DNA from: Actinomycetes bacterium
Lineage (GTDB): Bacteria; Actinomycetota; Actinomycetes; S36-B12
NCBI GenBank assembly: GCA_037130755.1
Contig: JBAXSI010000018.1
Location: forward strand, 918 to 64,917
Direction of reading: 5' to 3'
DNA length: 64,000 nucleotides
Positions 5,463-46,973 of this stretch are shown here, one piece after another (position 1 is the first letter of the stretch; each line of letters begins with the position of its first letter). The notes below the pieces were generated by a model. The model did not search any database, was not told the origin of the DNA, and saw only the letters and a program-made list of their open reading frames with translations. The position numbers and the translations under genes are program-made.

Positions 5463-5541
5463 GCGGTCAATCTAGGTGAGCGCGCACCTGCATGGAGTGC
5501 GGATGACCGCCATCTCACGTTTTCTACAGAACGTCCTTGCG

Positions 5542-24305: not shown

Positions 24306-24409
24306 GATTCAGTTGTGGTGCGATCCGACCATGCAGCGACCCCCGGTGTCAAAGAATGCGAGCCCGCCTTTCCCCAACGCAGGCCAGGTGACACGGAGAT
24401 ACTCCGAGG

Positions 24410-25789
24410 ATGAGCTTTCGCCCTGAGGCATACGACGGCCCGCTGGATCGCGCCAGCATCCACGCCCGCTCCTGGCTGGCGGGCCTTCCGGACCGCCGCA
24501 TCCCACCGGTCGGCGACGTCGATTCGATCGCCGCGGAACTGGGTGGGCCACTGCCGGAGGGCTCCACCGATCCCGCGGCGGTGGTCGACCTGCTTGCCCG
24601 GCATGTCGAGCCGGGGCTCATGTCCATGGGTTCGGGACGATTCTTCGGCTGGGTGATCGGTGGTGCGCTCCCGGCGGCTCTAGGGGCCGACTGGCTGGTC
24701 AGCGCCTGGGACCAGAACGCTGCGATCCGCTTCGCGACGCCGGGCGTCATCGGGGCCGAGCAGGCAGCGGCCGCCTGGCTCCTGGACCTCATGTCCCTGC
24801 CGTCCGGCGCGCAGGTGTCCTTCGTGACGGGCGGAACGACCGCCAACTTCGCCGGCTTGGCCGCCGGCCGACAGCGGGTGCTCGAGTCCGCTGGCTGGGA
24901 TCTCGACAGCGATGGGCTGGCCGGCTCCCCGCGCGTCACCGTGATCGTGGGCGCTGATCGGCACAGCTCCGTCGACATCGCGCTGCGCTACCTCGGACTC
25001 GGCGCTCCCACGCCGGTCGACGCCGACGACCAAGGGCGGATCCGACCTGAGGCCCTCGTCGCCGCACTGGAGCGCATCGACGGTCCGCTCATCGTCGCGC
25101 TGCAGGCGGGCAACCTGCACTCGGGTGCCTTTGACGCCGTCGGTGAGTGCGCCGACCTGGTGCACGATCGCGGGGGATGGGTGCACGTCGACGGCGCGTT
25201 CGGGCTCTGGGCGGCGGCCTCGCCGCGGCTGCGCGAACTCGTGCCCGGACTTGAGCGAGCCGACTCGTGGGCTACCGATGCCCACAAGTCCCTGAACACC
25301 CCCTACGACTGCGGGATCGCCATCGTTCGCGATCCCGCGGCGCTGCGGTCGGCCTTCGGGTTCAGGGCTGCCTACCTCGTCCAGTCCGAGGGTCCGGCCG
25401 ACCCCTTCGAGACGGTCCCTGAGTTCTCGCGCCGCGCCCGGGGCGTGCCCGTCTGGGCCGCCCTGCGATCGCTCGGGCGGGCCGGCGTCGCCGACCTCAT
25501 CGAAGGGTTCGTCGCCAACGCCCAGGCGATCGCGGCCGGCATCGCCGAGATCCCCGGCGCGCGGATCCTCAACGATGTCGTCTTCTCGCAGGTGTCGGTC
25601 GCTTTCGAAAGCGACGAGCGGACCCGCCTCGTCACCCAACGACTGCTGGCCGATGGCGTGACGTGGATGTCAGGGTCGAGGTGGCGGGGTCACGACGTCA
25701 TGAGGGTGTCGGTGAGCAACTGGTCGACCGATGCTCGCGACGTCCAGATGAGCATCGAGGCCGTCCGGCGTGCGGCGGGCACGGCCTAG
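24410..25789 (+). CDS. PLP-dependent decarboxylase (group II, aspartate aminotransferase fold)
   Basis: 459 aa with the PLP-lysine motif SWATDAHKSLNTPYDCG and FVTGGTTANF. Confidence 0.8.
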   Translation: MSFRPEAYDGPLDRASIHARSWLAGLPDRRIPPVGDVDSIAAELGGPLPEGSTDPAAVVDLLARHVEPGLMSMGSGRFFGWVIGGALPAALGADWLVSAWDQNAAIRFATPGVIGAEQAAAAWLLDLMSLPSGAQVSFVTGGTTANFAGLAAGRQRVLESAGWDLDSDGLAGSPRVTVIVGADRHSSVDIALRYLGLGAPTPVDADDQGRIRPEALVAALERIDGPLIVALQAGNLHSGAFDAVGECADLVHDRGGWVHVDGAFGLWAAASPRLRELVPGLERADSWATDAHKSLNTPYDCGIAIVRDPAALRSAFGFRAAYLVQSEGPADPFETVPEFSRRARGVPVWAALRSLGRAGVADLIEGFVANAQAIAAGIAEIPGARILNDVVFSQVSVAFESDERTRLVTQRLLADGVTWMSGSRWRGHDVMRVSVSNWSTDARDVQMSIEAVRRAAGTA

Positions 25790-29986: not shown

Positions 29987-30007
29987 TGCTCAGCCCCTCG
30001 GAGGGGG

Positions 30008-31198
30008 TCAGTCGCGGGCAGCCGTCGTGCCGGGCAGCGACAGCATGCGATCGAGGGCGACGCGTGCCCAGTGCGCGGTGTCGGGATCCACGTCGATCCG
30101 GTTGACCACCGTTCCGGCGACGAGTGACTCCAGTGCCCACACCAGGTGCGGAAGGTCGATCCGGTTCATTGTCGAGCAGTAGCAGACGGTGCGGTCGAGG
30201 TAGACGATCTCCTTGTCGGGGTTCGCCAGGGCGAGCCGCTTCACCAGATTGAGCTCGGTGCCCACGGCCCAGGCAGTGCCCGGCTCGGCTGCGTTGACGG
30301 TCGCGATGATCTTCTCCGTCGACCCGACGTAGTCGGCCTTCTGCACGACCTCGTACTGGCACTCCGGGTGGACGATGACATTGATGCCAGGAACCCGCTC
30401 GCGGACCTCATCGACGCAGTCGGGGGTGAAGCGGCCGTGCACCGAGCAGTGGCCCTTCCACAGGATCATCTTCGCGTCGCGCAGTTGCTCGGCGGTCAGG
30501 CCGCCGTCAGGCCGGTTCGGGTTGTAGACGACGCAGTCGTCGAGCGACAATCCCATGTCGCGCACTGCGGTGTTGCGGCCCAGGTGCTGGTCGGGGAGAA
30601 AGAGCACCTTCTCGCCCCGCTCGAACGCCCACTCCAGGCTGCGCTCGGCATTGCTCGACGTGCAGACCGCGCCGCCGTGCCGGCCGGTGAACGCCTTGAT
30701 CGCCGCCGACGAGTTCATGTACGTGACCGGCACCGTCACGTCCGCGACCCCAGCGCGCTCAAGCGCCGCCCAGCACTCCTCGACCTGGCCGATCACGGCC
30801 ATGTCGGCCATCGAGCAGCCGGCCGCGAGGTCCGGGAGGATCACCTGCTGGTCGGGGGACGTGAGGATGTCCGCGCTCTCGGCCATGAAGTGCACGCCCT
30901 CGAAGACGATGAACTGCGCCTCGGGGTGGGCGGCGGCCTGCTGGGCCAGCTTGAACGAGTCGCCCGTCACGTCGGCGAACTCGATCACCTCGTCGCGCTG
31001 GTAGTGGTGCCCCAGCACGAACACGCGGTCACCCAGAGTGGCCTTGGCCGCGGCGGCGCGCTCGCGCAGGGCGGGATCGGAGGCCGGCGGAAGGACTCCG
31101 GGGCACTCGACGCCGCGTTCGCTCTGCGGGTCAGAGCCGTGGCCGAGCAGGAGCAGGGCGAGCGGGGTCGGCTGGGGATCGGTGAACGTATTGCCCAT
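30008..31198 (-). CDS. nadA: quinolinate synthase
   Basis: Trimmed to the ATG at 31198 (MGNTFTDPQPTPL...), 396 aa. NadA-like blocks include VFVLGHHYQRDEV, FMAESADIL, CSMADMA and HPECQ. Confidence 0.92.
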   Translation of the reverse strand: MGNTFTDPQPTPLALLLLGHGSDPQSERGVECPGVLPPASDPALRERAAAAKATLGDRVFVLGHHYQRDEVIEFADVTGDSFKLAQQAAAHPEAQFIVFEGVHFMAESADILTSPDQQVILPDLAAGCSMADMAVIGQVEECWAALERAGVADVTVPVTYMNSSAAIKAFTGRHGGAVCTSSNAERSLEWAFERGEKVLFLPDQHLGRNTAVRDMGLSLDDCVVYNPNRPDGGLTAEQLRDAKMILWKGHCSVHGRFTPDCVDEVRERVPGINVIVHPECQYEVVQKADYVGSTEKIIATVNAAEPGTAWAVGTELNLVKRLALANPDKEIVYLDRTVCYCSTMNRIDLPHLVWALESLVAGTVVNRIDVDPDTAHWARVALDRMLSLPGTTAARD

Positions 31199-31370
31199 CT
31201 GCACAGTCTGGCATGGGCGCGAAACCCGCATCGGGGGGACTTTCGCGCAATCGCGGTACATGTGAGACTGTAGGGAATACAGCGGGTCCCGCTCGGGTTC
31301 CCGACACCAAAGCGAATCCTCCAGCCGCGCGGCGCACGTGCCCGCGGTGACGTTCCGAAAGGGCAGCAGC

Positions 31371-31733
31371 ATGACGGCAGACACCACCACGACCGAGGCT
31401 CCGGTCACCGACGGCGTCCTCCTCACCGAGACCGCCGCCGCGAAGGTCAAGGCACTGCTCGAGTCCGAGGGTCGCGATGACCTCGCACTGCGCGTGGCTG
31501 TCCAGCCAGGCGGTTGCTCGGGCCTGCGCTACCAGCTCTTCTTCGACGACCGCAGCCTCGACGGCGACGTCGTCAAGGACTTCAGCGGCGTCGGTGTCGT
31601 CACCGACCGCATGAGCGCGCCGTACCTGAGCGGCGCGACCATCGACTTCGTCGACACGATCGAGAAGCAGGGCTTCACGATCGACAACCCCAACGCCACG
31701 GGCTCGTGCGCGTGTGGAGACTCCTTCCACTAA
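31371..31733 (+). CDS. erpA: A-type iron-sulfur cluster carrier (HesB/IscA/ErpA family)
   Basis: ATG at 31371, 120 aa. Contains GGCSGLRYQLFFD and the C-terminal GSCACGDSFH cysteine motif. Confidence 0.9.
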   Translation: MTADTTTTEAPVTDGVLLTETAAAKVKALLESEGRDDLALRVAVQPGGCSGLRYQLFFDDRSLDGDVVKDFSGVGVVTDRMSAPYLSGATIDFVDTIEKQGFTIDNPNATGSCACGDSFH

Positions 31734-31739
31734 GCGCAC

Positions 31740-31837
31740 CACCCCCGTCACCATTTCGCCGAGTGGCGAGTCGTGGCCGCTTTGATCCCCGGATCGACGG
31801 CCACGACTCGCCACTCGGCGAAATGGTGACGGGGGTG
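31740..31837. repeat. perfect 40-bp inverted repeat with 18-nt spacer
   Basis: The left arm cacccccgtcaccatttcgccgagtggcgagtcgtggccg (31740..31779) is exactly complementary to the right arm cggccacgactcgccactcggcgaaatggtgacgggggtg (31798..31837). The loop holds a small gatcc/ggatc sub-stem. Starts 6 nt after the erpA stop. Confidence 0.95.
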
Positions 31838-31915
31838 ACCGCGACGGCGCCGCGCATCGGCGGTGCGCCCAGCCATTCGGAGTGGCGGGGATGCCGAGGG
31901 GTAGGGTCGCCCACC

Positions 31916-32902
31916 GTGGCTGTCCTCATCACCGGGTCCATCGCGACCGATCACCTCATGACCTTCCCGGGCAAGTTCTCGGACTCGCTCGTGGCCGACA
32001 AGCTCGACAAGGTCTCACTGTCGTTCCTCGTCGACGAGCTCGAGGTGCGTCGGGGTGGGGTCGCCCCGAACATCGCCTTCGGAATGGGCTGCCTCGGGCT
32101 TCGCCCGATCCTCGTCGGAGCGGTCGGTCCGGACTTCGCTGACTACGAGTCGTGGCTGCAGCGGCACAACGTCGACACCAGCGGCGTCCGCGTCTCGGAC
32201 TCCCGGCACACCGCGCGCTTCGTCTGCACGACCGACAGCGAGCAGAACCAGATCGCCTCGTTCTACCCGGGAGCGATGTCCGAGGCACGCAACATCGAGC
32301 TGCGCCCGGTCGTCGACCGGATCGGCAAGACCGAACTCGTGCTGATCGGTGCCAACGACCCCGAGGCGATGCTGCGCCACACCGAGGAGTGCCGGTTCCG
32401 CGGGTACCCCTTCGCCGCGGACCCGTCGCAGCAGCTGGCCCGCATGGATGGTCCGGAGATCAAGCCGTTGATCGAGGGCGCCGCGTACTTGTTCACCAAC
32501 GAGTACGAGGCCGCGCTCATCGAGCAGAAGACGGGCTGGTCGAACACCGACATCGGGGCGATCGTCGAGACGCGCGTGACCACGCTGGGCCCGGACGGCG
32601 CCAAGGTGGAGCGCCGCGGGGAGTCGACGGTGCGCGTCACGGTTCCCGAGGAGGATCGTCGCGCTGACCCCACAGGGGTCGGCGATGCGTTCCGGGCCGG
32701 TTTCATCTCGGGCCAGGCCTGGGGGCTCTCCGACGAGCGATCCGCGCAGCTCGGTTCGCTGCTGGCCACCTACGTCATCGAGACGGTGGGCACCCAGGAG
32801 TACGAGCTCGCACAGCGGCACTTCCTCGAGCGCATGGCCCGGACGTACGGGGACGACGCGGCGGCCGAGGTCGAGCCGCACATCGCCTGCCCGCGGCCCT
32901 GA
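31916..32902 (+). CDS. adoK: adenosine kinase (PfkB family, Rv2202c-type)
   Basis: In-frame GTG at 31916 (VAVLITGSIATDHLMTFPGKFSDSLVADKLDKVSLSFLVDEL...), 328 aa. Near-colinear with my recollection of M. tuberculosis AdoK. PfkB motif DPTGVGDAFRAGF. Confidence 0.85.
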   Translation: MAVLITGSIATDHLMTFPGKFSDSLVADKLDKVSLSFLVDELEVRRGGVAPNIAFGMGCLGLRPILVGAVGPDFADYESWLQRHNVDTSGVRVSDSRHTARFVCTTDSEQNQIASFYPGAMSEARNIELRPVVDRIGKTELVLIGANDPEAMLRHTEECRFRGYPFAADPSQQLARMDGPEIKPLIEGAAYLFTNEYEAALIEQKTGWSNTDIGAIVETRVTTLGPDGAKVERRGESTVRVTVPEEDRRADPTGVGDAFRAGFISGQAWGLSDERSAQLGSLLATYVIETVGTQEYELAQRHFLERMARTYGDDAAAEVEPHIACPRP

Positions 32903-32920
32903 TACCGGTCCCAGGACCGA

Positions 32921-33580
32921 ATGCCCACTGCACCCTCACCGTGCCGGTGGAACCTGCCTGACCCCGCCGACGGCGAGCCGGGCCAGGACGTCCTGGCGAT
33001 CGGTGCTGACCTCGAACCGGGCACGGTGTTCGCCGCCTACTGCCGCGGGCTGTTCCCGATGCACCTGGACACTGGCGAGCTGGCGTGGTGGTCACCGGAT
33101 CCGCGCGGCGTGATTCCACTCGACGGGCTCCGCATGACCAAGTCCCTTCGCGCGTCATGCCGGCGTTATGAGGTGACGGTCGACGCCGCGTTCACGGACG
33201 TCATGACAGCGTGCGGCGACGAGCGCCGACCGCAGGGCTGGATCACGCCGGACTTCGTGGCTGCCTACACCGAACTGCACCGGCTCGGCTGGGCCCATTC
33301 CGTCGAGACGTGGGACGACGCCGGTGAGCTGGTCGGCGGCCTGTACGGCGTCAGCATCGGCGGCCTGTTCGCAGGCGAGTCGATGTTCCACACCGCGCGC
33401 GACGCGTCGAAGGTCGCGCTCGTCGCGCTGGTTGAACTGCTGTCGAGCGACGGGGCGGACCGGCTGCTCGACGTGCAGTGGCGCACCGATCACCTGGCGA
33501 CGCTCGGCGCCGTCGAGATCCCGCGGATGCAGTACCTGAAGCGTCTGCAGTCCGCACTGACGCTGCCCTCGCCGTTCTGA
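32921..33580 (+). CDS. aat: leucyl/phenylalanyl-tRNA--protein transferase
   Basis: 219 aa with YCRGLFPM, WWSPDPRGV and GGLYGVSIGGLFAGESMF. Confidence 0.88.
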   Translation: MPTAPSPCRWNLPDPADGEPGQDVLAIGADLEPGTVFAAYCRGLFPMHLDTGELAWWSPDPRGVIPLDGLRMTKSLRASCRRYEVTVDAAFTDVMTACGDERRPQGWITPDFVAAYTELHRLGWAHSVETWDDAGELVGGLYGVSIGGLFAGESMFHTARDASKVALVALVELLSSDGADRLLDVQWRTDHLATLGAVEIPRMQYLKRLQSALTLPSPF

Positions 33581-33593
33581 CCGCGTGCTGGCG

Positions 33594-34067
33594 TCAGGAG
33601 AGGACGTGGCTCATCTGTTCCAGCATTCCGGCCATCTCCTCGTGATGGACGGGCTTGACGACTGAGCGGCCGTCGGGCTCCTGCTTGATCGTGACCTTCA
33701 TGCCCTGGAGCAGGTCCATGCCGATCCCGTACCAGAACCCCACCACTGTCTGAGGGTCTGCCGGGTCGGGACGCTGCATCGGGGTGCAGATCATGAAGCC
33801 GAGGGGCACGCCCTCGGGCTTGGCGGCCTCGAGCTCCTCCACGGCGTCGTACGCCGCGTTGCACCAGGGCTCGTTGCCGAACTCGTCGGTGCCCGGCGCG
33901 TAGTCCAGGCCGAAAATGCCCATGCCCTCATCGTCCGGTCCCTCGTACAGGTACAGGAGCTGGCAGGACTGCCCCTCGACGCCGACGATGACCGGCTTGG
34001 CGTCGATCAGGTGGGTGAGGCCGTAGCCCAGGCCTTTGAGGATGTTCTGCGGCGAGTGGTCGTCCAT
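33594..34067 (-). CDS. hypothetical acidic protein
   Basis: 157 aa with no family recognised. G/C-rich third positions. 12 nt downstream of, and co-oriented with, the class-V aminotransferase-like gene. Confidence 0.55.
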   Translation of the reverse strand: MDDHSPQNILKGLGYGLTHLIDAKPVIVGVEGQSCQLLYLYEGPDDEGMGIFGLDYAPGTDEFGNEPWCNAAYDAVEELEAAKPEGVPLGFMICTPMQRPDPADPQTVVGFWYGIGMDLLQGMKVTIKQEPDGRSVVKPVHHEEMAGMLEQMSHVLS

Positions 34068-34079
34068 AGCGCAGCGAGC

Positions 34080-35240
34080 CTAGTCTGCTGCGCCGCGTGC
34101 CGCCCTGACGGCGGCCGGGAGGGCGTCGAGGAATCCGCGGACGGTCGCCTCGGTGCAGTTGAACGGGAGGGAGACGCGGATGCTTGCGGCCGCCGTCAGT
34201 CCCATCGCCTCCAGCACCTGGCTCGGCATCCTGGCGTCCGATGTGCAGGCGGATCCGCTCGCGACGCTGAAGCCGCGGCGGTCGAGCTCGATCACCAGCG
34301 CCTCACCGATGACGTCCTCGCAGGCGAACGTGACGATGTGCGGGAGTCGGTCTAGGTCGTCGCCGGCGACGAGCAGCCCAGGGACCTGCGCGGGCAGCGT
34401 CTCGCGCAGCAGGCCCACGATGGCAGTCAGACGCGCGGACTCAGCCGCGCGGTGCGGCGCGAGGTACTCCAGTGCGGCCGCAGCCGCTGCGGCGCCCGCG
34501 ATATCGGGAAATCCGCCCACCCAACCACGGTCGGGACTCGCATCGGGGGTCCAGCGCGCCGATGACCGGACGGCCAGCACGCCGACCCCGGCCGGGCCGC
34601 CCCAGTCCCGGGCGGAGGCGGCCAGCACGTCCCAGCGAAGGGGGACGGGGTCGCGTCCGATCACCTGCACGGCATGCACGAGCAGCGGCACGTTCGCCTC
34701 GGCCGCCAGGGCCGCGGCCTCAAGCAGCGGCTGACGGGTACCCACCTCGGCGTTGGCCGCCTGCACGCACGCGAACGCGGTGGGTTGCGAGAGTGAGTCC
34801 TCGAAGGCGGCGAGGTCCATTCGACCGGTCGTGGTCACCGGAACGAGGTCGACGATGTCCGCCCACCGGCGGGCCGGCTCGAGCACCGCCATGCTCTCCA
34901 CAGCCGACGCGATCACGCGGCCGCAGACGGCGGACCTTGTCGCGGCCAGTCCGGCGACTGCGGTGGCGACGGCCGTCGGGCCGGACGAGGTGAAGAACAC
35001 CTCCTCGGGGCGGATCCCGAGGCTCGCCGCAACGCTGGCGCGGGCCGCGTCCAGCAGCATTCCGGCTCGGCGGCCGAGGTGGTGGAGGCGGGCCGGATCG
35101 GCCCAGGCCTGCTCCGAAGCGGCCGTCCACGCCTGCCGGGCGGCGGGCAGCAGTGGCTGTCCGCCGACGGCGTCCAAGTAGCCTTCCGGGGGCTGCGGGG
35201 CCGGCTCGGGAAGGGCTGACCGCGGGTCCGGTGAGTGCAC
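34080..35240 (-). CDS. cysteine desulfurase-like (aminotransferase class V fold) protein lacking any lysine; probable pseudoenzyme
   Basis: Start set at the in-frame GTG at 35240 (VHSPDPRSALPEP...), 386 aa. IscS/NifS-like blocks FTSSGPT, QAANAEVGTRQP and the cysteine loop SGSACTS are present. SGHK is replaced by SARDW, and there are no K residues in the whole protein. The start is uncertain. Confidence 0.7.
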   Translation of the reverse strand: MHSPDPRSALPEPAPQPPEGYLDAVGGQPLLPAARQAWTAASEQAWADPARLHHLGRRAGMLLDAARASVAASLGIRPEEVFFTSSGPTAVATAVAGLAATRSAVCGRVIASAVESMAVLEPARRWADIVDLVPVTTTGRMDLAAFEDSLSQPTAFACVQAANAEVGTRQPLLEAAALAAEANVPLLVHAVQVIGRDPVPLRWDVLAASARDWGGPAGVGVLAVRSSARWTPDASPDRGWVGGFPDIAGAAAAAAALEYLAPHRAAESARLTAIVGLLRETLPAQVPGLLVAGDDLDRLPHIVTFACEDVIGEALVIELDRRGFSVASGSACTSDARMPSQVLEAMGLTAAASIRVSLPFNCTEATVRGFLDALPAAVRAARGAAD

Positions 35241-35358
35241 GGGGGCCACGCTAGTCCGGACCCCCAAGAAAGATGGGTTTCCCCTCGTGGGGCCGCCTAC
35301 ATCGGGGGGTCCCGGTGCGCTAGTCTGCCCAGCGTCCCACCGACGAGAGAGGCGATCC

Positions 35359-36219
35359 GTGCGGCATTCGACCGAGGTGCTGTCGGCACCCCGCACCCCT
35401 TCGCGTCCGCGGCGCGGGCGCATTCGCGCTGCAGCGTTCGCCGTCGGCGCCTTGGCCATCACCCTGACCGCTTCCGGCTGCACGGCCAACGAGGCGTTCT
35501 TCATGGACATGCCGGACCCGGCGACCAAGGAAGGCGCCATCACCCAGAGCCTGTGGCAGGGCGCCTGGATCGCCGCGTGGGGCGTCGGGATCGTCACGTG
35601 GGGCCTGATGCTGTGGGCGGCATTCGCCTACCGTCGCCGGCACAAGGACGACGTGCCCGAGCAGACGAAGTACAACATCCCGATCGAGATCCTCTACACG
35701 ATCGTGCCGCTGATCATGATCCTCGGACTGTTCTGGTTCACCGCCAAGGACCAGAGCGAGATCCTGGCCGTGAGCAACGACCAGCAACACACCGTCAACG
35801 TCGTGGCCTATCGCTGGAACTGGGGCTTCAACTACCTCGACGAGGACGCCTACACCGTCGGCACACCCAACCTGCCGGCCACGCTGGTCCTGCCGGTCAA
35901 CGAGAAGGTGCGCTTCGAGCTCACCTCGCCGGACGTCATCCACTCCTTCTGGGTCCCGGCCTTCTTGTTCAAGATGGACGTCATCCCCGGCAAGACCAAC
36001 GTCTTCGAGCTGACCCCCAACAAGATCGGCACCTACGCGGGCAAGTGCGCCGAGCTCTGCGGCGTCGATCACTCCCGCATGCTCTTCAACGTCAAGGTCG
36101 TCGAGAAGGCCGAGTACGACAAGTACATCGCCGGTCTCAAGGCCAATGGGCAGACCGGCCTGCTCGTCACCGGCCGCAGCAATGACCACGGCACGATGCC
36201 AGGGGAGAAGACGACATGA
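35359..36219 (+). CDS. ctaC: cytochrome c oxidase subunit II
   Basis: GTG at 35359 preceded by gagagagg, 286 aa. Lipobox-like LTASGC. CuA motif [13 protein letters not shown]...[12 protein letters not shown]. Confidence 0.9.
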
Positions 36220-37931
36220 CGATCCTCAGCGACCCCGTCGCACCGTCCGATCCGAGCCCGGCGCTCGCGCCGGCGCCGCGCAAGCCCAACCTCGGCAGGA
36301 TCATCGTCAGCTGGGTGACGTCTACCGACCACAAGGTCATCGGCTACATGTACCTGTTCCTGTCGACGTTCTGGTTCATCGGCGCGGGTGTCATGGCGCT
36401 GGTCATCCGCGCCGAGCTGGCTGCTCCGGGCCTGCAGTTCGTGACGCTCGAGCAGTACAACCAGCTCTTCACGATGCACGGCACCGTGATGCTCTTCCTG
36501 TTCGCGACGCCGTTGTTCATCGCCTTCGGCAACATCATCATGCCGCTGCAGATCGGTGCTCCTGACGTCGCGTTCCCGCGTCTGAACATGCTGGGCTTCT
36601 GGCTGTTTCTGTTCGGCGGCATGACGGCCGCCTTCGGCTTCCTGACTCCCGGCGGCGCTGCGGCCTTCGGCTGGTTCGCATACGCGCCCCTCAGCAACGC
36701 CATCTACTCGCCCGAGGTGGGCGGCGACCTGTGGCTGCTCGGTCTGGCGATGGGCGGCCTGGGCACGATCCTCGGCTCGGTCAACTTCATCACGACGATC
36801 TTCTGCATGCGTGCGCCCGGCATGACCATGTTCCGGATGCCGATCTTCACGTGGACGATCTTCGTGACCAGCGTGCTGGTCATCTTGTGCTTCCCGGTCC
36901 TGGCGGCCGCGCTCGCGCTCGCGTTCATCGACCGCAACTTCGGCACCGTGGTCTTCGCCCCCGAGAACGGCGGGCCGATGCTGTGGCAGCACCTGTTCTG
37001 GTTCTTCGGGCATCCCGAGGTGTACATCCTCGCCCTGCCGTTCTTCGGCATCGCCAGCGAGATCATCCCGGTGTTCTCGCGCAAGCCGATCTTCGGCTAC
37101 AAGGGACTGGTGTTCGCGACCCTGGCCATCGGCGCCCTGTCGATGGCGGTGTGGGCGCACCACCTGTACGTGACCGGCTCGGTCTACCTGCCCTACTTCG
37201 CCATCATGACGATGCTCATCGCTGTGCCTACGGGCGTGAAGTTCTTCAACTGGATCGGCACGATGTGGAAGGGCTCGGTGCAGTTCGACACGCCGATGCT
37301 CTTCACCCTCGGCTTCATGATCACGTTCCTGTTCGGCGGCCTGACCGGCATCATCTTGTCGTCGCCGCCGCTGGACTTCCACGTGTCCGACAGTTATTTC
37401 GTGGTGGCGCACTTCCACTACACGGTCTTCGGCACCATCGTCTTCCTGTTCTTCGCCGGCCTGTACTTCTGGTGGCCGAAGATGACCGGCAAGATGCTCA
37501 ACGAGAAGCTCGGCAAGACGCACTTCTGGCTGCTGTTCATCGGGTTCCAGACCACCTTCTTGATCCAGCACTGGCTCGGCGTTCAGGGCATGCCGCGCCG
37601 GTACGGCGACTACCTGCCGGCCGACAACTTCGAGCTGTTCAACCAGATCTCAACCGCAGGCTCGGCCGTCCTGGGCATATCCACCATCGTGTTCCTCTGG
37701 AACGTCTTCAAGACCTGGCGCACTGCGCCGATGGTCGGCGTCGACGATCCTTGGGGCTGGGGCGGATCGCTGGAGTGGGCCACCTCCTGCCCGCCGCCGC
37801 GCCACAACTTCACCTCTCTCCCGCGCATCCGGTCCGAGCGCCCGGCGTTCGACCTGCACCACCCCGAGCTCGCTGCGGCCGGGGCGCATGTCGCACCTGC
37901 CGTCACCAGCGGTGAGGGGAGCGCCCAGTGA
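36216..37931 (+). CDS. ctaD: cytochrome c oxidase subunit I
   Basis: 571 aa with [11 protein letters not shown] and the other haem-copper oxidase blocks. ATGA overlap with ctaC. Confidence 0.96.
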
Positions 37932-38323
37932 AGATCGAGGGTCGCATCTTCGCGCTGGGCACGGTCTTCTTCCTCCTGCTCGCGCCGATCTACTGGTTCT
38001 TGTCGCGTGACCCGATCGGCACGACTGCCCTCGCCCTGTGTGGCGGCCTGACGTTCCTGGTGGGCTTCTACCTCCTCTACACGGCCAAGAGGGTCTATCC
38101 ACGACCCGAGGACCGCGAGGACGCCGAGATCGACGAGGCCGATCCGGAGTACGGCTTCTACAGCCCGCACTCGTGGTGGCCTCTGGTCATGGGCTTCGCC
38201 ACCTTCCTGGTCGTGATCGGCCTGATCTTCGCCGTGTGGATCGTGGTGTTCGGCGTCGTCGTCCTCGCGCTCGCGCTCGTGGGCTGGCTGTTCGAGTACT
38301 ACCGGGGCGATTTCGCCGTCTGA
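37928..38323 (+). CDS. ctaF: cytochrome c oxidase subunit IV (actinobacterial CtaF)
   Basis: 131 aa with four TM segments. GTGA overlap with the ctaD stop. Confidence 0.85.
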
Positions 38324-38409
38324 CCGCTCTCCGAGCGTGGTTTCGGGGTTTTAGGGGTTGTCGTCGTACCCTGTGTTCTGACGGTTTCCCCTCCCTCTGG
38401 AGTTCTGAC

Positions 38410-39795
38410 GTGGTATTCCCCGCCGGCAGGCTGGTCGTTGGCTTGGGCGTCATCGCCCTCGCCTTGACCGCGTGCGGCCCCGCGGTGACCGCGAACGTCG
38501 ACTTCCAGACCGTCACCCCGTCAGCCCAGTCCCGCGCGAGCGTGGTCGCCGAACCGGCCAGTGCCAAGCGGGTCGACCCCGATCAGCGGATCGTCGTCAA
38601 GGCCAGCGAGGGCCAGCTCTCGTCGGTGACGGTGGTCGGTCCCAAGGGGCCGATGAAGGGGATCATCTCCTCTGACGGCACCATCTGGACGGCGAACAAG
38701 TCATTCCTCGACTACGGCGCGACCTACACCGTCCAGGCCACGGCCGTCGATGCCCGCGGCGTCCCGATCACGCAGACCGGCCAGATCCGCACCAAGAAGC
38801 CCAAGGACTTCTTCAGCGGCTCCGTGCTTCCCGATGCCGGCACGACCGTCGGCTCGGGCACCCCGATCACAGTGACGTTCGACCACCCGATCAAGAACAA
38901 GGCCGACGTCGAACGCGCCCTCGTGGTCCACACGCCCACGCCGATGCTTGGCGCATGGTCCTGGAACAGCGACAGGAGTGCGGAGTTCCGGCCCCGGAAG
39001 TACTGGCCCGGAAACGCCGACATCACCGTTGACCTCAACCTCAAGGGCATCCAGGCCGACAAGGGTGTCTTCGGCAAGGAGAACCGCTCCACGACGTTCC
39101 ACACCGGCCAGCAACTTGTCGTGAAGGTCGATGCGATCAAGCACGCCGCTCGCGTGTACATCGACGGCAAGAAGGTCCGCACGATGCCCATCACCACGGG
39201 CAAGGCCGGCTTCGAGACGAGGTCGGGCACGGTCCTGATCGTGAGCAAGGAGCGGACCCGCATCATGGATGCCGCCACCGGCGGGACGTCGAAGAACGAT
39301 CCCGAGTACTACCGCCTCGAGGTCGAGTACGCCATGCGCATCACGTACTCGGGTGAGTTCCTGCACGCGGCTCCGTGGTCGGTGGGCTCGCAGGGGTTCG
39401 CAAACGTCAGTCACGGCTGCATCGGCATGAGCACCGCGAACGCCGCGTGGCTGTACAGCCAGGTCATCCCGGGCGATCCGGTCGAGATCACGGGCACCCC
39501 GATCCCGCAGAACCTCGGCAACGGCATCACTGCCTGGACGGAGACGTGGGACGAGTGGCTGGCGGGGTCCAAGGCCGGTCCGGTCAAGACGGTCCCGCCT
39601 GTCGGAACGCCGGTAGTGACCGACCCGTGGGCGACCAGCCCGACGGTCCCCGGCACCACGCCCAGCGTTCCCGGCACCACGCCGACCGACCCCAGCACGA
39701 CGCCGGCCTCGCCCGGACTGCCCGCGGACACTGCCCCGAGCGCACCCGCGTCCTCCGCGCCGGTGGTCACCCAGCAGACGAGCTTCGGCCGCTGA
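38410..39795 (+). CDS. L,D-transpeptidase lipoprotein (YkuD domain, LdtMt2-like)
   Basis: In-frame GTG at 38410, 461 aa. Lipobox LALTAC, Ig-like N-terminal domains, catalytic motif FANVSHGCIGMS. Pro/Thr-rich C-terminal tail. Confidence 0.85.
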   Translation: MVFPAGRLVVGLGVIALALTACGPAVTANVDFQTVTPSAQSRASVVAEPASAKRVDPDQRIVVKASEGQLSSVTVVGPKGPMKGIISSDGTIWTANKSFLDYGATYTVQATAVDARGVPITQTGQIRTKKPKDFFSGSVLPDAGTTVGSGTPITVTFDHPIKNKADVERALVVHTPTPMLGAWSWNSDRSAEFRPRKYWPGNADITVDLNLKGIQADKGVFGKENRSTTFHTGQQLVVKVDAIKHAARVYIDGKKVRTMPITTGKAGFETRSGTVLIVSKERTRIMDAATGGTSKNDPEYYRLEVEYAMRITYSGEFLHAAPWSVGSQGFANVSHGCIGMSTANAAWLYSQVIPGDPVEITGTPIPQNLGNGITAWTETWDEWLAGSKAGPVKTVPPVGTPVVTDPWATSPTVPGTTPSVPGTTPTDPSTTPASPGLPADTAPSAPASSAPVVTQQTSFGR

Positions 39796-39805
39796 TCGCG
39801 CGCCA

Positions 39806-40435
39806 GTGAACGCCGCTGCCGCAGCGGGAGTCGGTGAGCTGCCGGCCGGATCGCTGTCGGTATGGCTCGGGGAGATCGGGCGTGCGCTGGCGTCGGGGGA
39901 GGCGTCCGAGGTCCCCTGCGGCACGTGCACCGCCTGCTGCTCGGCTGCCCAGTTCGTCCATGTCGGGCCGGACGAGGTGGAGGCCCGTGCGAGCATCCCC
40001 GACGAGCTGCTCTTCCCCGCTCCGGGGCTGCCGGACGGGCATCAGCTGCTCGGCTACGACGAGCAGGGGCGGTGCCCGCTGCTGGGGGACGCGGGCTGCA
40101 CCATCTACCCGACCCGGCCGCGAGCCTGCCGGGTCTATGACTGCCGGGTATTCGCGGCCACCGGGGTGCTGCCCGACGAGCCGGCCAAGGCCCCGATCGC
40201 CCAGCGCGCGCGGTCGTGGCGGTTCGCGGTGAACACCCCGGCTGAGCAGGCCCAGTGGGAGGCCTTGCACGCTGCCGCTGACTTCGTCTCCGCGCTGCCG
40301 GAAGCCGCGGCCGCCGGACCCACGGCGCAAGCGCTGGCCGCGCTCAGGGTGCATGGGCTGTTCATGGGGGGCGAGGGCCCGCGCGTACCCGATCCGGCCG
40401 AGGTACGGGCAGCCCTGGCCGACCCTGGCTCCTGA
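39806..40435 (+). CDS. YkgJ-family (UPF0153) cysteine-cluster protein
   Basis: 209 aa with CGTCTACC and a second cluster CPLLGDAGCTIYPTRPRACRVYDC. Confidence 0.75.
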   Translation: MNAAAAAGVGELPAGSLSVWLGEIGRALASGEASEVPCGTCTACCSAAQFVHVGPDEVEARASIPDELLFPAPGLPDGHQLLGYDEQGRCPLLGDAGCTIYPTRPRACRVYDCRVFAATGVLPDEPAKAPIAQRARSWRFAVNTPAEQAQWEALHAAADFVSALPEAAAAGPTAQALAALRVHGLFMGGEGPRVPDPAEVRAALADPGS

Positions 40436-42168: not shown

Positions 42169-43911
42169 TCAGTGCTCGCGGTTCTCCGCGAGCTGCTCGG
42201 CGTTCGTCTCGGCCATGCCCGGGTGGTGGAGGACCCCACCATGCAGCCTGCGGAGCTCGTCGGCGTCCTCGTACTCGTGCAGGGGTGCCTCGAGAGCCGC
42301 GTCGTGGGCCGCATGGTGCTGCCCCGCCTCAATCTCCTCAGCGGAGGGCATCGTGACGTTGTCGGCGTAGAAGAAGGTGCTGAGCTTGTGCCGCCACGAC
42401 TGCGAGCGGAACTTCGGGTTGCGAACGCCGTCGGCGTCCGTGGCCTGCGGTTCGGGCAGCGGCACGTGGTCGGTCTTCGAGGTGATGACCGCGAGGTCCT
42501 TGACCGGCAGTGGCTCGTGCACCTCGATGAACTCGCCGTGCGGCAGGCGCAGGACGCGGCCGGACTCGTAGCCGTGCAGCAGTTTGTCGCGGTCCTTGCG
42601 CTGGAGCCCGAGGCAGATGCGCTTGGTGACGATGAAGACGATCGGCGGGAACACGAAGAGTGCCACGCGCAGGAACCAGGTGATCGCGTTGATCGACAGG
42701 TCGAACGCCTGCGCGATGATGTCGTTCGCGCCACCGATCCACAGCAGGCAGTAGAACGTGATCGCCATCATGCCGATGCCGGTGCGAACGGGTGCGTTGC
42801 GCGGCCGATCGAGCAGGTTGTGCTCGCGGGTGTCGCCGGTGACCCAGGACTCGATGAACGGGTAGAGCGCCAGCACCGTGAAGATGATGCCCGGCAGGAT
42901 CATCGCCGGGATCATGATGTTCCAGGAGATGGTGATGCCCCAGAACGACGATTCCCAGTTGGGCATTACGCGCAGGGCTCCGTCGAGGAACCCGATGTAC
43001 CAGTCGGGCTGCGAGCCCGCCGACACTTGGTCGGGCGTGAACGGTCCGAACAGCCAGATCGGGTTGATCGTGACGAGGCCACCGACCAGGCCGATGACGC
43101 CGAAGACGATGAAGAAGAAGCCGCCGGCCTTGGCCATGTAGATCGGCATCAACGGGTAGCCCACGACGTTGTCGTTGGTGCGGCCGGGTCCGGGGAACTG
43201 AGTGTGCTTCTGCGTCCACACGAGCATGAGGTGTGCGGTGACCAGCGCCAGGATCAGGCCGGGGATGAGCAGGATGTGGACCGAGTACAGCCGGGAGATG
43301 AAGTCGGTGCCCGGGAACTCGCCGCCGAACAGCAGGAACGCCATCCACGTGCCGATGATCGGCGCGGCCTGCATGATGCCGCGGGCGATCTGCAGGCCCG
43401 TGCCGGAAAGCAGGTCGTCGGGGAGGGAGTAGCCGGAGAAGCCGGCCAGCAGGGCCAGGCCGGTGAGGGCCACGCCGATGAGCCAGTTGAACTCGCGCGG
43501 CTTGCGGAAGGCGCCGGTGAAGAACACCCGGAACATGTGCACGGCCATCGCCGCCACGAAGATCAGGGCCGCCCAGTGGTGCATCTGGCGCAGGAGCATG
43601 CCGCCGCGAATGTCGAACGAGATGTTCATGGCCGATGCATAGGCCTCGGACATCTTGATGCCCTTGAGGGGCACGTACGAGCCGTCGTAGACGACCTCGA
43701 CCATGGACGGCTTGAACCACAGGGTCAAGAAGACGCCGGTCAGGAGCACCACGATGAAGCTGTACAGCGCGATCTCGCCGAGCATGAACGACCAGTGGTC
43801 AGGGAAGACCTTGCCGAGGTTGCGGGCAAGGAACTTGTTGCTTCCCATTCGCTTGTCGACGTACGTCGCCGTGGCCCCGCCGGCCCGCTCGACATGACTA
43901 GGGGTGCTCAT
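42169..43911 (-). CDS. qcrB: cytochrome bc1 complex cytochrome b subunit
   Basis: 580 aa with cytochrome b N- and C-terminal blocks (MHHWAALIFVAAMAVHMFRVFFTGAFRKPRE). ATGA overlap with qcrA. Confidence 0.95.
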   Translation of the reverse strand: MSTPSHVERAGGATATYVDKRMGSNKFLARNLGKVFPDHWSFMLGEIALYSFIVVLLTGVFLTLWFKPSMVEVVYDGSYVPLKGIKMSEAYASAMNISFDIRGGMLLRQMHHWAALIFVAAMAVHMFRVFFTGAFRKPREFNWLIGVALTGLALLAGFSGYSLPDDLLSGTGLQIARGIMQAAPIIGTWMAFLLFGGEFPGTDFISRLYSVHILLIPGLILALVTAHLMLVWTQKHTQFPGPGRTNDNVVGYPLMPIYMAKAGGFFFIVFGVIGLVGGLVTINPIWLFGPFTPDQVSAGSQPDWYIGFLDGALRVMPNWESSFWGITISWNIMIPAMILPGIIFTVLALYPFIESWVTGDTREHNLLDRPRNAPVRTGIGMMAITFYCLLWIGGANDIIAQAFDLSINAITWFLRVALFVFPPIVFIVTKRICLGLQRKDRDKLLHGYESGRVLRLPHGEFIEVHEPLPVKDLAVITSKTDHVPLPEPQATDADGVRNPKFRSQSWRHKLSTFFYADNVTMPSAEEIEAGQHHAAHDAALEAPLHEYEDADELRRLHGGVLHHPGMAETNAEQLAENREH

Positions 43912-44954
43912 CCGCGCTCCCAGAAACTCGGTCCGACAGGTTCAGCGAAGTCCGACGTCGCGACAAGGTAGCCCTCGGCGTCGACACCGATCGGCAACTG
44001 GGGCATGCGCCGGGCGGCCGGTCCGAAGACCACGTTGCCGGCATCGGCCAGGTCGAACGTTGACTGGTGGCACGGGCACAGCAGGTGGTGCGTGCGCTGC
44101 TCATACAACGAGATCGGGCAGCCCACGTGGGTGCAGATCTTCGAGTAGGCCAAGATCCCCTGGTAGTCCCAGCCGTCGCCTTGCTGCGCGCGGATCTCGT
44201 CGGGCTGCATGCGCACGAGGATGATCGCGGCCTTGCCGCGGGCGTTGAGGTTGCCCTGTGCCTCCTGCACCTCCGGCAGGTCCGCGGGGACAGCGTTGAT
44301 CAGGCCGCCGACGGGAAGGTCCTCGGGCTTGATCGGCTTGTAGGTGCCGTCGGACACGATGCGGCTGCCCTTGGTCCACAGGGTCGTGGACAGGATTTCG
44401 GCGGGGGACTTGCCCTCCTCAGCGGGCGTGGGCACCCAGAGGTCCTTCAGCAGCACGATCAACGGGATCGGGAAGAGGACCATCGCGGCGATCATCGTGC
44501 GGCGGATCATCTTGAACCGCGCGAAGCCGGACTCCTCCTTGCCGCGTTCGTAGTTCGCCTCGGCCTCGGCAGTGTCGTCAGCGGGGGACACCTGATCGTG
44601 CCGGTACTGGACGACCTCGACGTCGGGCATGAGCTTCTTGGCCCACTGGATCGCGCCGGCGCCGATGAGGAACACCGAGGCGCCGAAGGTGATGCCGAGC
44701 GCGATGTTGATCGCACTGGTCTCGCCGATGACCGGGATGTAGATCGTCAGGCTCGGGTCGATCGCCACGTAGGCGGCCACGAACAGGACGACGAAGAGCA
44801 CCGACAGCAAGAACATCGAGGCGACCTGGCGCTCGGCGCGCTTGGCCATCTTCGGGTCCGTGTCGGTCGCCCGCAGCTTGTGCGGCACGTCCGCCACCGG
44901 GGAGTGTCCGAGGGCGACCTGCTGGTCGTGGTCGGGTGAGGAGATTTCGGTCAT
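43908..44954 (-). CDS. qcrA: cytochrome bc1 complex Rieske iron-sulfur subunit
   Basis: 348 aa with three N-terminal TM helices and Rieske motifs CTHVGCP ... CPCHQS. Confidence 0.95.
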   Translation of the reverse strand: MTEISSPDHDQQVALGHSPVADVPHKLRATDTDPKMAKRAERQVASMFLLSVLFVVLFVAAYVAIDPSLTIYIPVIGETSAINIALGITFGASVFLIGAGAIQWAKKLMPDVEVVQYRHDQVSPADDTAEAEANYERGKEESGFARFKMIRRTMIAAMVLFPIPLIVLLKDLWVPTPAEEGKSPAEILSTTLWTKGSRIVSDGTYKPIKPEDLPVGGLINAVPADLPEVQEAQGNLNARGKAAIILVRMQPDEIRAQQGDGWDYQGILAYSKICTHVGCPISLYEQRTHHLLCPCHQSTFDLADAGNVVFGPAARRMPQLPIGVDAEGYLVATSDFAEPVGPSFWERG

Positions 44955-45745
44955 CGCGACTTGATTCCGATCCAGACGGCCGCCGCCAGGAGGACAGCGA
45001 ACACTGCGGTGACGAGGAAGACACCCTCAGTGACCGGGCCGATGCGGCCCAGGCTCAGGCCGCCGGGGTTCGGCAGTGTCTGGAGGGTCGTTATGTACTT
45101 GATGATGTGCTGCTTGTCCTCGGAGTTCAGTGTGGCGTCACCGAAGACCGGCATGTTCTGCGGGCCGGTCAGCATCGCCATGTAGATGGTCTTGGGTCGG
45201 GACTGCATGAGGTTGGGTGCGTACTTGCCCTGGGTCAGTGCCCCGCCCTGGCCGGCGGCCTGATGGCACTGCGAGCAGTTGATCCGGAACAGCTCGCCGC
45301 CCAGTGCCGCGTCAGCGTTGGTCGGGTCGTACTGCTCGGCGGTGGGGATGGCCGGACCGGGAGCCAGCGAGGCGATGTACGCCGCCATCTGGCTGGTCTC
45401 CTCGTCGGTGTACAGCGCCCGATCGCGCGCCGGCGCCTGCGCTCCGGGTGCGGCCAACGGCATGCGGCCGGTGGAGACCTGGAACGCCACTCCCGCGGCA
45501 CCGACGCCGATGAGTGACGGGCCGGTCTCGGTGCCCTGTGCGGCAAGGCCGTGGCAGGAGGAGCAGCCCTCGAGGTACAGCTTCTTGCCCGCCTCAACCT
45601 GGGTCTCACTGCCGACGGTGATCGCCGCGTTGGCGGGCTGGATGCTCGCGATGGCGGCGTAGCCGCCGCCGACGACCGTCAGCGCGCCGATCAACAACAG
45701 GGTTGCCACGATCGGGTTTCGCCGTCGGGCGGCCAGGAACTTCAC
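44951..45745 (-). CDS. qcrC: cytochrome bc1 complex dihaem cytochrome c subunit
   Basis: 264 aa with two CxxCH motifs (CSSCH, CSQCH) and a C-terminal TM anchor. Confidence 0.93.
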   Translation of the reverse strand: MKFLAARRRNPIVATLLLIGALTVVGGGYAAIASIQPANAAITVGSETQVEAGKKLYLEGCSSCHGLAAQGTETGPSLIGVGAAGVAFQVSTGRMPLAAPGAQAPARDRALYTDEETSQMAAYIASLAPGPAIPTAEQYDPTNADAALGGELFRINCSQCHQAAGQGGALTQGKYAPNLMQSRPKTIYMAMLTGPQNMPVFGDATLNSEDKQHIIKYITTLQTLPNPGGLSLGRIGPVTEGVFLVTAVFAVLLAAAVWIGIKSR

Positions 45746-45802
45746 TGTCGCTGAACCTCTCTGGTCGTGAGATGGAACCGGTCGGGCTTTTGCGGGGAAG
45801 CG

Positions 45803-46408
45803 CTACTTGAGGATGTAGATCATGAAGAACAGGGCGATCCACACGACGTCGACGAAGTGCCAGTAATACGACGTGACGATGGCGCGCGTCGCCTGGTCGT
45901 GCGTGAAGCGCTTGGTCACGTACGTGGTGGCGAGAACGAACAGGAAGGCGATCAGGCCGCCACTGACGTGAAGTCCGTGGAAGCCGGTCGTCAGGTAGAA
46001 CGCCGAGCCGTAGGCGTTCGAGTCCAGCCGCAGGCCCTCGTTGACGAGGCTGGCGTACTCGGTGACCTGGCCGGCGATGAAGATCGCGCCCATGAAGAAG
46101 GTGATGATGAACCAGCGACGCAGACCCTTGACGTCGCCACGCTCCGCGGCGAACACGCCCAGCTGGCAGGTCACCGAGGACAGGACCAGGACGGTGGTGT
46201 TGACGGCCGCGAAGGGAATGTTGAGCTTGGCCGTCTCCTCGGCCCACATCTCCGGGTTCACCGCCCGGAGCGTGAAGTACATCGCGAACAGCGCCGCGAA
46301 GAACATGAGCTCGCTCGACAGCCACACGATGGTGCCGATGGCAACCATGTTCGGACGGTTTGCCGGGGCGTGCGTGTAGGCCTGGGGGACGGTAGTTGCG
46401 TTCGCCAC
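45803..46408 (-). CDS. ctaE: cytochrome c oxidase subunit III
   Basis: 201 aa with five TM segments and YWHFVDVVW near the C-terminus. Confidence 0.93.
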
Positions 46409-46510
46409 GGGGGGAGTCTGGCAGATCAGGCGGCAGGATTCAGCGTGACCCCCCGACCTTTTCCACAGTTTGTCGCGGACGGAATCCGGGGGGTTCGATC
46501 AGGGGAGGCC

Positions 46511-46966: not shown

Positions 46967-46973
46967 GCCGAAG

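Follow-up and report, generated by a model that had tools for sequence, protein, structure and literature searches.

The subject of this analysis is dsl, a gene on a 64,000-nucleotide stretch of DNA from an actinomycete (contig JBAXSI010000018.1; the whole stretch is hereafter called the window), which encodes a protein related to the cysteine desulfurases IscS and NifS that contains no Lys. The Lys that binds pyridoxal 5′-phosphate (PLP) is missing from the protein and from a wide circle of its actinobacterial relatives, whereas the mobile loop with the active-site Cys is kept, and such proteins may have passed from catalysis to a carrier or adaptor role. The gene and the diagnostic residues of its product are located as follows:

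34080–35240, minus strand: dsl, Lys-less IscS/NifS-like coding sequence of 386 amino acids (aa) plus stop codon, supported by translation, Pfam PF00266, the AlphaFold2 (AF2) model and the ratio of non-synonymous to synonymous substitution rates (dN/dS)
34602–34616, minus strand: SARDW, in place of the S-x-H-K PLP motif, from alignments to 4isy and 1ecx
34665–34676, minus strand: HAVQ, in place of DAxQ, with His189 for the Asp that contacts the pyridine nitrogen (pyridine-N Asp) and with Gln192 kept, from alignment
34893–34901, minus strand: VES, in place of VEH, with Ser116 for the His stacking on the PLP ring, from alignment
34236–34262, minus strand: ASGSACTSD, the mobile active-site loop with Cys332 (34245–34247), invariant in alignment A1
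34176–34178, minus strand: Arg355 in the SIRVSLP block, an aligned Arg with checked coordinates

The initial annotation of the window had described a protein of 386 aa without any Lys, and the translation of 34080–35240 on the minus strand does contain 0 Lys; all the blocks quoted there are also present in it, namely VASGSACTSDARMPSQVLEAMG (which carries Cys332), QAANAEVGTRQP, SARDW and HAVQ. The protein is a full-length member of the Aminotran_5 family (Pfam PF00266, E=1.8e-33, residues 21–367). Among the NCBIfam equivalogs the best match is NifS (TIGR03402), with 189.1 bits against a cut-off of 530.75, while IscS (TIGR02006) gives 101.2 bits against 643.2, and every NifS/IscS equivalog stays far under its cut-off. 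The AF2 model, built from an alignment of 30 family members, is of high quality, with a predicted local distance difference test (pLDDT) of 89.7 and a predicted template modelling score (pTM) of 0.90, and it superimposes on 4isy with template modelling (TM) scores of 0.87–0.89 and on Archaeoglobus fulgidus IscS with 0.85–0.89. Its sole internal segment of low confidence is the Cys loop at residues 333–337 (pLDDT <50), as is expected for the flexible loop of a class-I desulfurase. Neither a signal peptide nor a transmembrane segment was recognized in the sequence of the protein.

In regard to the PLP site, HMMER alignments to 4isy and 1ecx pair the Schiff-base Lys with Asp212 and the His before it with Arg211; the pyridine-N Asp is matched by His189, and the stacking His by Ser116. 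The phosphate-loop region is altered as well, SGPTA standing in place of the canonical GGTES. On the other hand, the protein keeps Asn163, Gln192, Arg355 and the Cys332 loop, of which Arg355 is taken to correspond to the IscS Arg that contacts the carboxylate group of cysteine. In PLP enzymes of fold type I the Lys is required, since it forms the aldimine and also acts as the base. As no Lys is present anywhere in the dsl protein, it is predicted to be unable to form an internal aldimine and to lack the general base, which agrees with the initial annotation and extends it, since the pyridine-N Asp and the stacking His are gone too. Judged against a class-I desulfurase, the protein has the fold, the Cys loop and the Arg, and fails in the Lys, the Asp, the His and the equivalog scores. 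Because of the missing Lys, Asp and His and of fold-type-I chemistry, PLP-dependent desulfuration is not to be expected from it. The mobile-loop Cys332, proposed earlier as a retained persulfide carrier, is in place.

The conservation of these changes was followed in two collections. The first comprises 80 orthologous loci from species-representative genomes, with dsl proteins of 44–77% identity, from Nanopelagicales-like metagenome-assembled genomes (MAGs) to cultured Janibacter (44%); the second comes from the representatives of 50%-identity clusters, which were searched exhaustively and gave 734 clusters at E<=1e-30, the 127 nearest full-length ones being analysed. The Lys of the PLP column is absent in 80/80 genome orthologues and in 77 of the 127 representatives, so that the SGHK Lys, the general retention of which in orthologues would have marked the window's copy as a product of lineage-specific decay, is not generally retained. 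In the 77 Lys-less representatives its place is taken by 12 different residues (S 22, D 16, T 10, A 9, G 7, and others), which indicates loss of function at this site rather than the gain of a new catalytic residue. The preceding His is kept in only 4 of these 77 and the stacking His in 24, compared with a stacking His in 49 of the 50 Lys-retaining representatives. The pyridine-N Asp is still present in 73/77 Lys-less sequences, and its change to His is therefore specific to the subclade of the window. In contrast to the variable Lys column, 161/161 loci and 74/74 Lys-less representatives have kept the loop Cys, and the substrate-Arg column holds Arg in 75/77 Lys-less and 50/50 Lys-retaining ones. 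In alignment A1, which contains 30 sequences, more than 80 columns are invariant, among them R211, D212 and the Cys loop; R355 is invariant, and so are, in the clade of the window, W213 and the block P236–D246 (PDRGWVGGFPD). 

Nine pairs of dsl orthologues gave dN/dS of 0.07–0.38, similar to the adjoining aat gene; values from frameshifted or misaligned neighbours (pfkB/nadA in L001, ctaC in L002/L003, aat in L024/L025) were left out as artefacts. The open reading frame (ORF) of dsl is unbroken in every locus that covers it, from Janibacter to Nanopelagicales. A rough neighbour-joining (NJ) tree, which did not include archaeal sequences, shows two small Lys-retaining subclades nested within a largely Lys-less actinobacterial clade. 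These comparisons show that dsl is not a one-off case of decay. It belongs to a large and old family on which purifying selection acts, and which can do without the PLP site but not without the Cys loop. Among cultured bacteria the Lys-less form is carried by Janibacter spp., and the 10 cluster representatives checked were singletons, almost none of them named. A subclade of Nanopelagicales-type MAGs (L031, L034, L035, L038–L040, L042, L047 and L052) reads A-P-A-K-D-W: Asp still fills the Lys column, and a Lys occupies the old His site immediately ahead of the canonical Schiff-base position.

The complete absence of Lys was regarded by the initial annotation as the most striking trait of the protein. 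The zero count holds, yet it mainly follows from composition, as the Lys-retaining sisters and Mycobacterium tuberculosis IscS are equally Lys-poor: the catalytic Lys is often the sole Lys in those sisters (P0141, P0162, P0180), and M. tuberculosis IscS has only 3 Lys over 384 aligned residues. Proteins of the window average 2.1% Lys, which gives ~8 expected in the dsl protein and a Poisson P(0) of ~3e-4, a value to be read with caution given the overdispersed use of Lys among these proteins; comparison with homologues and neighbouring genes carries more weight. A very low Lys count is not peculiar to dsl in this genome, since three other ORFs of the window are similarly poor: 24392–25786 (plus strand; 1 Lys in 465 aa), 4266–5471 (minus strand; 2 in 402) and 3304–4332 (minus strand; 2 in 343). 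Among the 120 best database homologues (57–77% identity), Lys is wholly absent from 89; another 26 contain a single one, which in no case falls in the PLP column. Lys content is lower in the dsl protein than in its soluble neighbours in 69/69 syntenic loci (0.36% vs 2.25%), and Lys is the most depleted residue relative to them (ratio 0.15), followed by Tyr, Phe and Asn (0.38–0.51), with Ala (1.65) and Pro (1.42) enriched. The guanine-cytosine (GC) content of dsl is 0.74, compared with 0.65–0.70 in the neighbouring genes, and its product contains 21% Ala and 7.5% FYMINK residues (Phe, Tyr, Met, Ile, Asn, Lys). Members from genomes with 52–58% GC hold 1–6 Lys, mostly 3–6, none of them at the PLP site, and three distant representatives hold 21–28, again none at the PLP column. 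Total freedom from Lys as a selected trait, for example for the evasion of pupylation, was rejected because of the family-wide composition, the high GC and the Lys present in lower-GC members. The trait conserved in the family is the loss of the catalytic Lys, and the absence of Lys from the whole protein mostly adds to it a Lys-poor, GC-driven composition, on top of which some residual Lys-specific avoidance may exist.

The neighbourhood of dsl contains the following genes:

30008–31733: nadA, minus strand, encoding quinolinate synthase, an iron-sulfur (Fe-S) enzyme, and at 31338–31733, plus strand, a gene for an erpA/HesB-type A-type Fe-S carrier (PF01521)
33594–34067, minus strand: p157, an orphan ORF of 157 aa, 12 bp downstream of dsl, in the slot held by tusA in relatives
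35287–36219, plus strand: ctaC, oxidase subunit II, a lipoprotein with lipobox LTASGC; an ORF with orthologues assigned to PF00116 COX2 in loci L082, L090 and L092
36216–38323, plus strand: ctaD and ctaF, oxidase subunits I and IV; ORFs with orthologues assigned to COX1 and Cyt_c_ox_IV in L092, and supported by synteny

The start of ctaC is probably the GTG at 35359, which is preceded by the ribosome-binding site GAGAGG. The whole order is nadA (minus), erpA, a pfkB kinase gene and aat for the Leu/Phe-tRNA protein transferase (all plus), p157 and dsl (both minus), ctaC-ctaD-ctaF (plus) and an L,D-transpeptidase gene. NadA and Fe-S_biosyn domains were also called in L090 and L091, and the synteny of nadA and erpA is found in about all loci with enough sequence. 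Further along the window, at 42169–48086, lie qcrB, qcrA (Rieske protein, 43908–44954), qcrC and ctaE on the minus strand and trpD on the plus strand, an order known from the mycobacterial ctaE-qcrCAB/trpD region, so that the whole 30–48 kb represents the conserved respiratory island. Between the erpA stop codon (31733) and pfkB there is a near-perfect inverted repeat with 46-bp arms (31740–31837), the hairpin of which has a folding energy of -99.3 kcal/mol (z = -16). Its arms recur nowhere else in the window. A very strong terminator is one possible reading of it, and a palindromic element another.

The position of dsl divergent from ctaC-ctaD-ctaF, called conserved in the initial annotation, is so in practically every locus examined. 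In 80/80 genome loci ldt-ctaF-ctaD-ctaC diverges from dsl, dsl converges with aat-pfkB-erpA, and nadA follows in the orientation of dsl. Over 165 loci in total, 80 of them contributed by a metagenome scan, a divergent ctaC stands upstream in 82 of 86 Lys-less and 37 of 42 Lys-retaining loci with enough upstream DNA. Within this block dsl is the fastest-evolving gene, with 44–77% identity compared with 62–93% for pfkB. Two loci depart from the common order: in L092 (GCA_053484615.1, JBMNYC010000003.1) a Lys-retaining dsl, tusA, ctaC, ctaD and ctaF run in one direction and the pfkB/erpA/nadA block is missing, and in L091 a Caa3_CtaG assembly-factor gene follows tusA in the place of aat. Streptomyces presumably also has an aminotransferase gene beside ctaC. 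No second desulfurase was found in the 64-kb window.

Between dsl and ctaC, three short elements emerged from the comparative alignment:

35248–35253, minus strand: TAGCGT, a -10-like hexamer that precedes the GTG at 35240 by 7 nt, in the pattern CTA.CGTG-N7-(G/A)TG, which at least 80% of the 31 aligned loci conserve
35276–35294, minus strand: GGCCCCACGAGG(G/C)GAAACC, non-palindromic and conserved only in part, situated between the divergent pair of -10 elements
35321–35326, plus strand: TAGTCT, a -10-like hexamer of a putative ctaC promoter, within the conserved GTGCGCTAGTCTGCC

On the dsl side, TAGCGT or TACCGT stands 7 nt before GTG or ATG in at least 80% of the 31 aligned loci, and the same proportion holds for GGCAGACTAGCGCAC (GTGCGC-TAGTCT-GCC) on the ctaC side. 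The middle element is less uniform: as CCCCACGAGG(G/C)GAA at 35276–35294 it has its CCCCACGAGG core in about 8 of 12 printed rows, and few of its columns reach 80% over 31 sequences. It matched no known motif, and it may be a site for a shared regulator. The start codon predicted by the gene caller, GTG at 35249 (P0001, 389 aa), falls inside the conserved TAGCGTG element. The conserved hexamer and its N7 spacing in these loci favour a leaderless start at 35240, as originally proposed, rather than at 35249. The -10-like hexamers would act as promoters, and the dsl transcript would be leaderless. A sigma-70 promoter scan of 33400–35600 found nothing and told less than the alignment of the loci. 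An Rfam scan of 30000–40000 gave no match in the dsl-ctaC intergenic region, and only spurious matches of miRNA models to the hairpin at 31741–31835.

The initial annotation also saw in dsl and p157 a two-gene unit; the adjacency is real, with its gap of 12 bp, and its conservation is not. The p157 ORF adjoins dsl only in the window and in contig L090, whose dsl is 76% identical, and is absent from 80/80 genome loci, among them L001 with its 77%-identical dsl. Neither Pfam nor NCBIfam gave a match for it, and only 11 homologues were found in 5.8 billion proteins; elsewhere these adjoin a luciferase-like oxidoreductase and an adenylate/guanylate cyclase-TPR protein, or a response regulator. Its composition is unlike that of dsl (GC 0.656, Lys 3.8%, Arg 1.3%), being rich in Lys and poor in Arg where the neighbouring genes are not. 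Among the homologues W68, C69 and C94 are invariant and C35 is nearly so, and they share a conserved FWYGIGM block. Structure prediction by AF2 was poor (pLDDT 58), with no Foldseek match below E=0.05. A disguised TusA was considered and rejected, as p157 shows no family match, no BLAST similarity to TusA and no fold match; as a conserved partner it was dismissed on account of its 11 homologues, their other contexts and its absence from the 80 genome loci. Comparison of the loci indicates that p157 is a lineage-restricted insertion and that the conserved partner in relatives is TusA.

The same ctaC-divergent slot is held in relatives by Lys-retaining genes (SAHKWGGP, 47–50% identical), which are then followed by tusA (PF01206, with the CPxP Cys), often with overlapping stop and start codons. 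In a table of loci that ignores phylogenetic kinship, tusA lies downstream of 58/65 Lys-retaining and 16/84 Lys-less genes (odds ratio ~35). The 16 include Janibacter sp. GS2, a Nocardioidaceae MAG and several Nanopelagicales MAGs, and the TusA Cys is intact in 8/8 printed sequences among them. Within Janibacter (L075, L077, L079 and L080 vs L078), tusA is found downstream only in Janibacter sp. GS2 and is absent from this place in J. anophelis, J. corallicola, J. limosus and one MAG, which points to a recent or ongoing loss of tusA in this genus. No TusA-like ORF was found in the 64-kb window. 

What the analysis shows, from the fold and the lost PLP residues to conservation, synteny and the link of relatives with TusA, is best accommodated if dsl encodes a PLP-free pseudo-desulfurase derived from an IscS-like/TusA pair and kept for a carrier or adaptor role that depends on the Cys loop, a reading to which we give a probability of roughly 55%. 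The protein would then neither bind PLP nor act on cysteine. According to this scenario, the ancestor would have been an active IscS-like/TusA pair beside ctaC. The Schiff-base Lys would have been lost repeatedly, after which the PLP pocket could relax and tusA would usually be lost, and in the narrow lineage of the window p157 would have been inserted in the vacated tusA slot. Cys332 could take up persulfide from another system and pass it on, or it could ligate a nascent Fe-S cluster provided by such a system. The protein would then resemble A. fulgidus IscS, in which the Lys-to-Asp change is the same. As carrier or adaptor the dsl protein might serve TusA (where present), ErpA/NadA or the respiratory complexes as candidate clients. 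A non-catalytic action seems most likely because selection keeps the mobile Cys loop together with the C-terminal domain around it.

Several points weigh against such a carrier or adaptor. The strict linkage to ctaC is not accounted for by a generic role in Fe-S or sulfur carriage. The rough NJ tree does not fix the number and direction of the Lys losses, and the tusA table, besides ignoring kinship, compares two locus sets that were gathered with different patterns. Retention of tusA in 16 Lys-less relatives could mean that some sulfur chemistry was retained. Finally, neither an IscU/SufU-like nor a TusA gene is present in the 64-kb window, which leaves this particular protein without an evident partner.

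The linkage that the carrier reading leaves aside is what keeps alive an alternative in which dsl is a dedicated assembly factor of the aa3 oxidase or of the bcc-aa3 supercomplex, relaying copper or sulfur to CtaC or delivering a [2Fe-2S] cluster to the Rieske protein QcrA. Divergent ctaC is near-universal (82/86 and 37/42 loci), it outlasts the rearrangement in L092, Caa3_CtaG follows tusA in L091, conserved elements lie between the divergent promoters, and qcrA belongs to the same island. We nevertheless consider this rather unlikely, as the whole island is highly syntenic and linkage alone is weak evidence in it. The dsl protein shows no homology to Sco, PCuAC, CtaG, Surf1 or CtaA/B, Aminotran_5 being its sole match, and it has no metal motif beyond the single loop Cys; in addition, Mycobacterium and Corynebacterium presumably have the same supercomplex with asnB/ltsA in the dsl slot. 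The copper or metal relay to the oxidase suggested in the initial annotation has only synteny in its favour: the protein has no signal peptide or transmembrane segment and would be cytoplasmic, whereas the lipobox (LTASGC) of CtaC marks its CuA domain for export, so that direct copper loading is topologically implausible and a direct copper or CuA role unlikely. An association with the opposite end of the block, in which dsl would be the Fe-S or sulfur partner of NadA and/or ErpA, whose genes lie three to four genes off, and a degenerate analogue of Bacillus subtilis NifS-NadA, draws on the joint occurrence of nadA and erpA within the conserved block, seen in about all loci that are long enough, on NifS as the best NCBIfam similarity (TIGR03402, 189 bits) and on the direct building of the NadA cluster by B. 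subtilis NifS (PMC13066941). It is, however, unlikely, since pfkB and aat lie between dsl and nadA, dsl has its own putative leaderless promoter facing ctaC, dsl-tusA stays with ctaCDF and not with nadA/erpA in L092, and a Lys-less protein cannot supply sulfur from cysteine.

It could also be argued that the protein is still an enzyme, which has remodelled its pocket (Arg211, Asp212, His189, PDRGWVGGFPD) to hold PLP non-covalently, or some different cofactor or ligand, and performs a new reaction on cysteine or a related thiol. The replacement residues R211, D212 and W213 and the P236–D246 block are invariant in the clade of the window, Gln192, Asn163 and Arg355 of the substrate site are kept, and 16 Lys-less relatives keep an intact TusA acceptor. 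In fold-type-I PLP enzymes, though, the Lys is needed for the aldimine and as the base; the 12 residues at its column and the variable flanking and stacking His columns across the wider family indicate relaxation, and the A. fulgidus protein with the same Lys-to-Asp change is inactive, which makes retained catalysis very unlikely. A functionless relic, slowly decaying and not yet deleted, would fit the fastest evolution in the block, the strong compositional drift (GC 0.74, Ala 21%, FYMINK 7.5%) and the loss of tusA in most Lys-less lineages; it is highly improbable in view of the intact ORF in all covering loci from Janibacter to Nanopelagicales, the dN/dS of 0.07–0.38 and the more than 80 invariant columns in A1, the Cys loop among them.

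Pipeline labels such as "cysteine desulfurase" or "PLP-dependent enzyme" are almost certainly wrong for the Lys-less family, and such mislabelling inflates the sulfur-mobilising capacity inferred for the abundant freshwater Actinobacteria represented by Nanopelagicales-type MAGs. The Lys-less family of actinobacteria is large and apparently undescribed: no paper was found on it or on its ctaC/TusA linkage in a searchable literature that is incomplete, and queries combining TusA, Streptomyces and cytochromes led to general reviews only. It provides a natural series for the study of roles other than desulfuration in a desulfurase scaffold, from Lys with TusA, through Lys-less with TusA, to Lys-less without TusA, a question so far approachable only through the single archaeal example of A. 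fulgidus. Linkage to ctaC also raises the question of a dedicated sulfur or Fe-S trafficking link to the respiratory supercomplex of actinobacteria. As a speculation, quite doubtful at present, the IscS-like protein (with TusA where kept) might form a module of the respiratory island for PLP-independent hand-over of sulfur or Fe-S via the Cys loop to the bcc-aa3 supercomplex, for example in the maturation of Rieske QcrA, or in persulfide or sulfide handling that protects a sulfide-sensitive oxidase. If true, this would explain how repeated, independent loss of the catalytic Lys was survived without leaving ctaC.

Among known systems, M. tuberculosis IscS (Rv3025c, 4ISY) is the best match of the dsl protein (E=3e-38, 32% identity, TM 0.87–0.89), with which it shares the SGSAC...PSH loop, the C-terminal R-x-S-L block and the poverty in Lys. 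Canonical IscS/NifS proteins are characterized by GGTES, VEHH, DAxQ and SGHK, where the dsl protein has SGPTA, VES, HAVQ and SARDW. The IscS-TusA relay of Escherichia coli (3LVJ) resembles the arrangement of the Lys-retaining orthologues and of the 16 Lys-less relatives with tusA; it differs in that the window has no tusA and that a Lys-less protein cannot generate the persulfide handed to TusA. In B. subtilis, NadA has its cluster built directly by NifS (PMC13066941), and the likeness consists in the association of a NifS-like gene with nadA and in NifS as the best NCBIfam match. That NifS is, however, an active PLP enzyme adjoining the nad genes, while dsl is situated four genes from nadA and its product has no catalytic Lys.

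The closest functional precedent is A. fulgidus IscS (AF0564; 4EB5/4EB7/4HVK, 4R5F), and owing to it a dead desulfurase is no longer "unexplained", as the initial annotation had put it. This archaeal protein is reported to have no desulfurase activity and to ligate a [2Fe-2S] cluster on IscU through its loop Cys; Methanosarcina acetivorans IscS1 is reportedly also without the essential Lys (PMC7585200). Like the dsl protein, A. fulgidus IscS has the class-I fold (TM 0.85–0.89, phmmer E=7e-31), retains the mobile-loop Cys and shows a change of Lys to Asp, Asp212 in the window corresponding by coordinate arithmetic to about residue 199 of 4eb5; the title of PDB entry 4r5f names the D199K mutant of A. 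fulgidus IscS, that is, Asp199 reverted to Lys. The differences are that it is archaeal, is encoded with IscU and is only ~26% identical, and that the dsl protein, unlike it, is also without the pyridine-N Asp and the stacking His. A. fulgidus IscS goes with IscU, while the fixed neighbour of dsl is ctaC and the conserved one in its relatives is tusA; p157 or tusA, aat, pfkB, erpA, nadA and ctaC were found as neighbours in the window and 160 related loci, with no IscU/NifU-type gene among them. Since the Lys-less actinobacterial proteins nest among Lys-retaining actinobacterial ones in the NJ tree, the loss of Lys in actinobacteria appears to have been independent of that in archaea.

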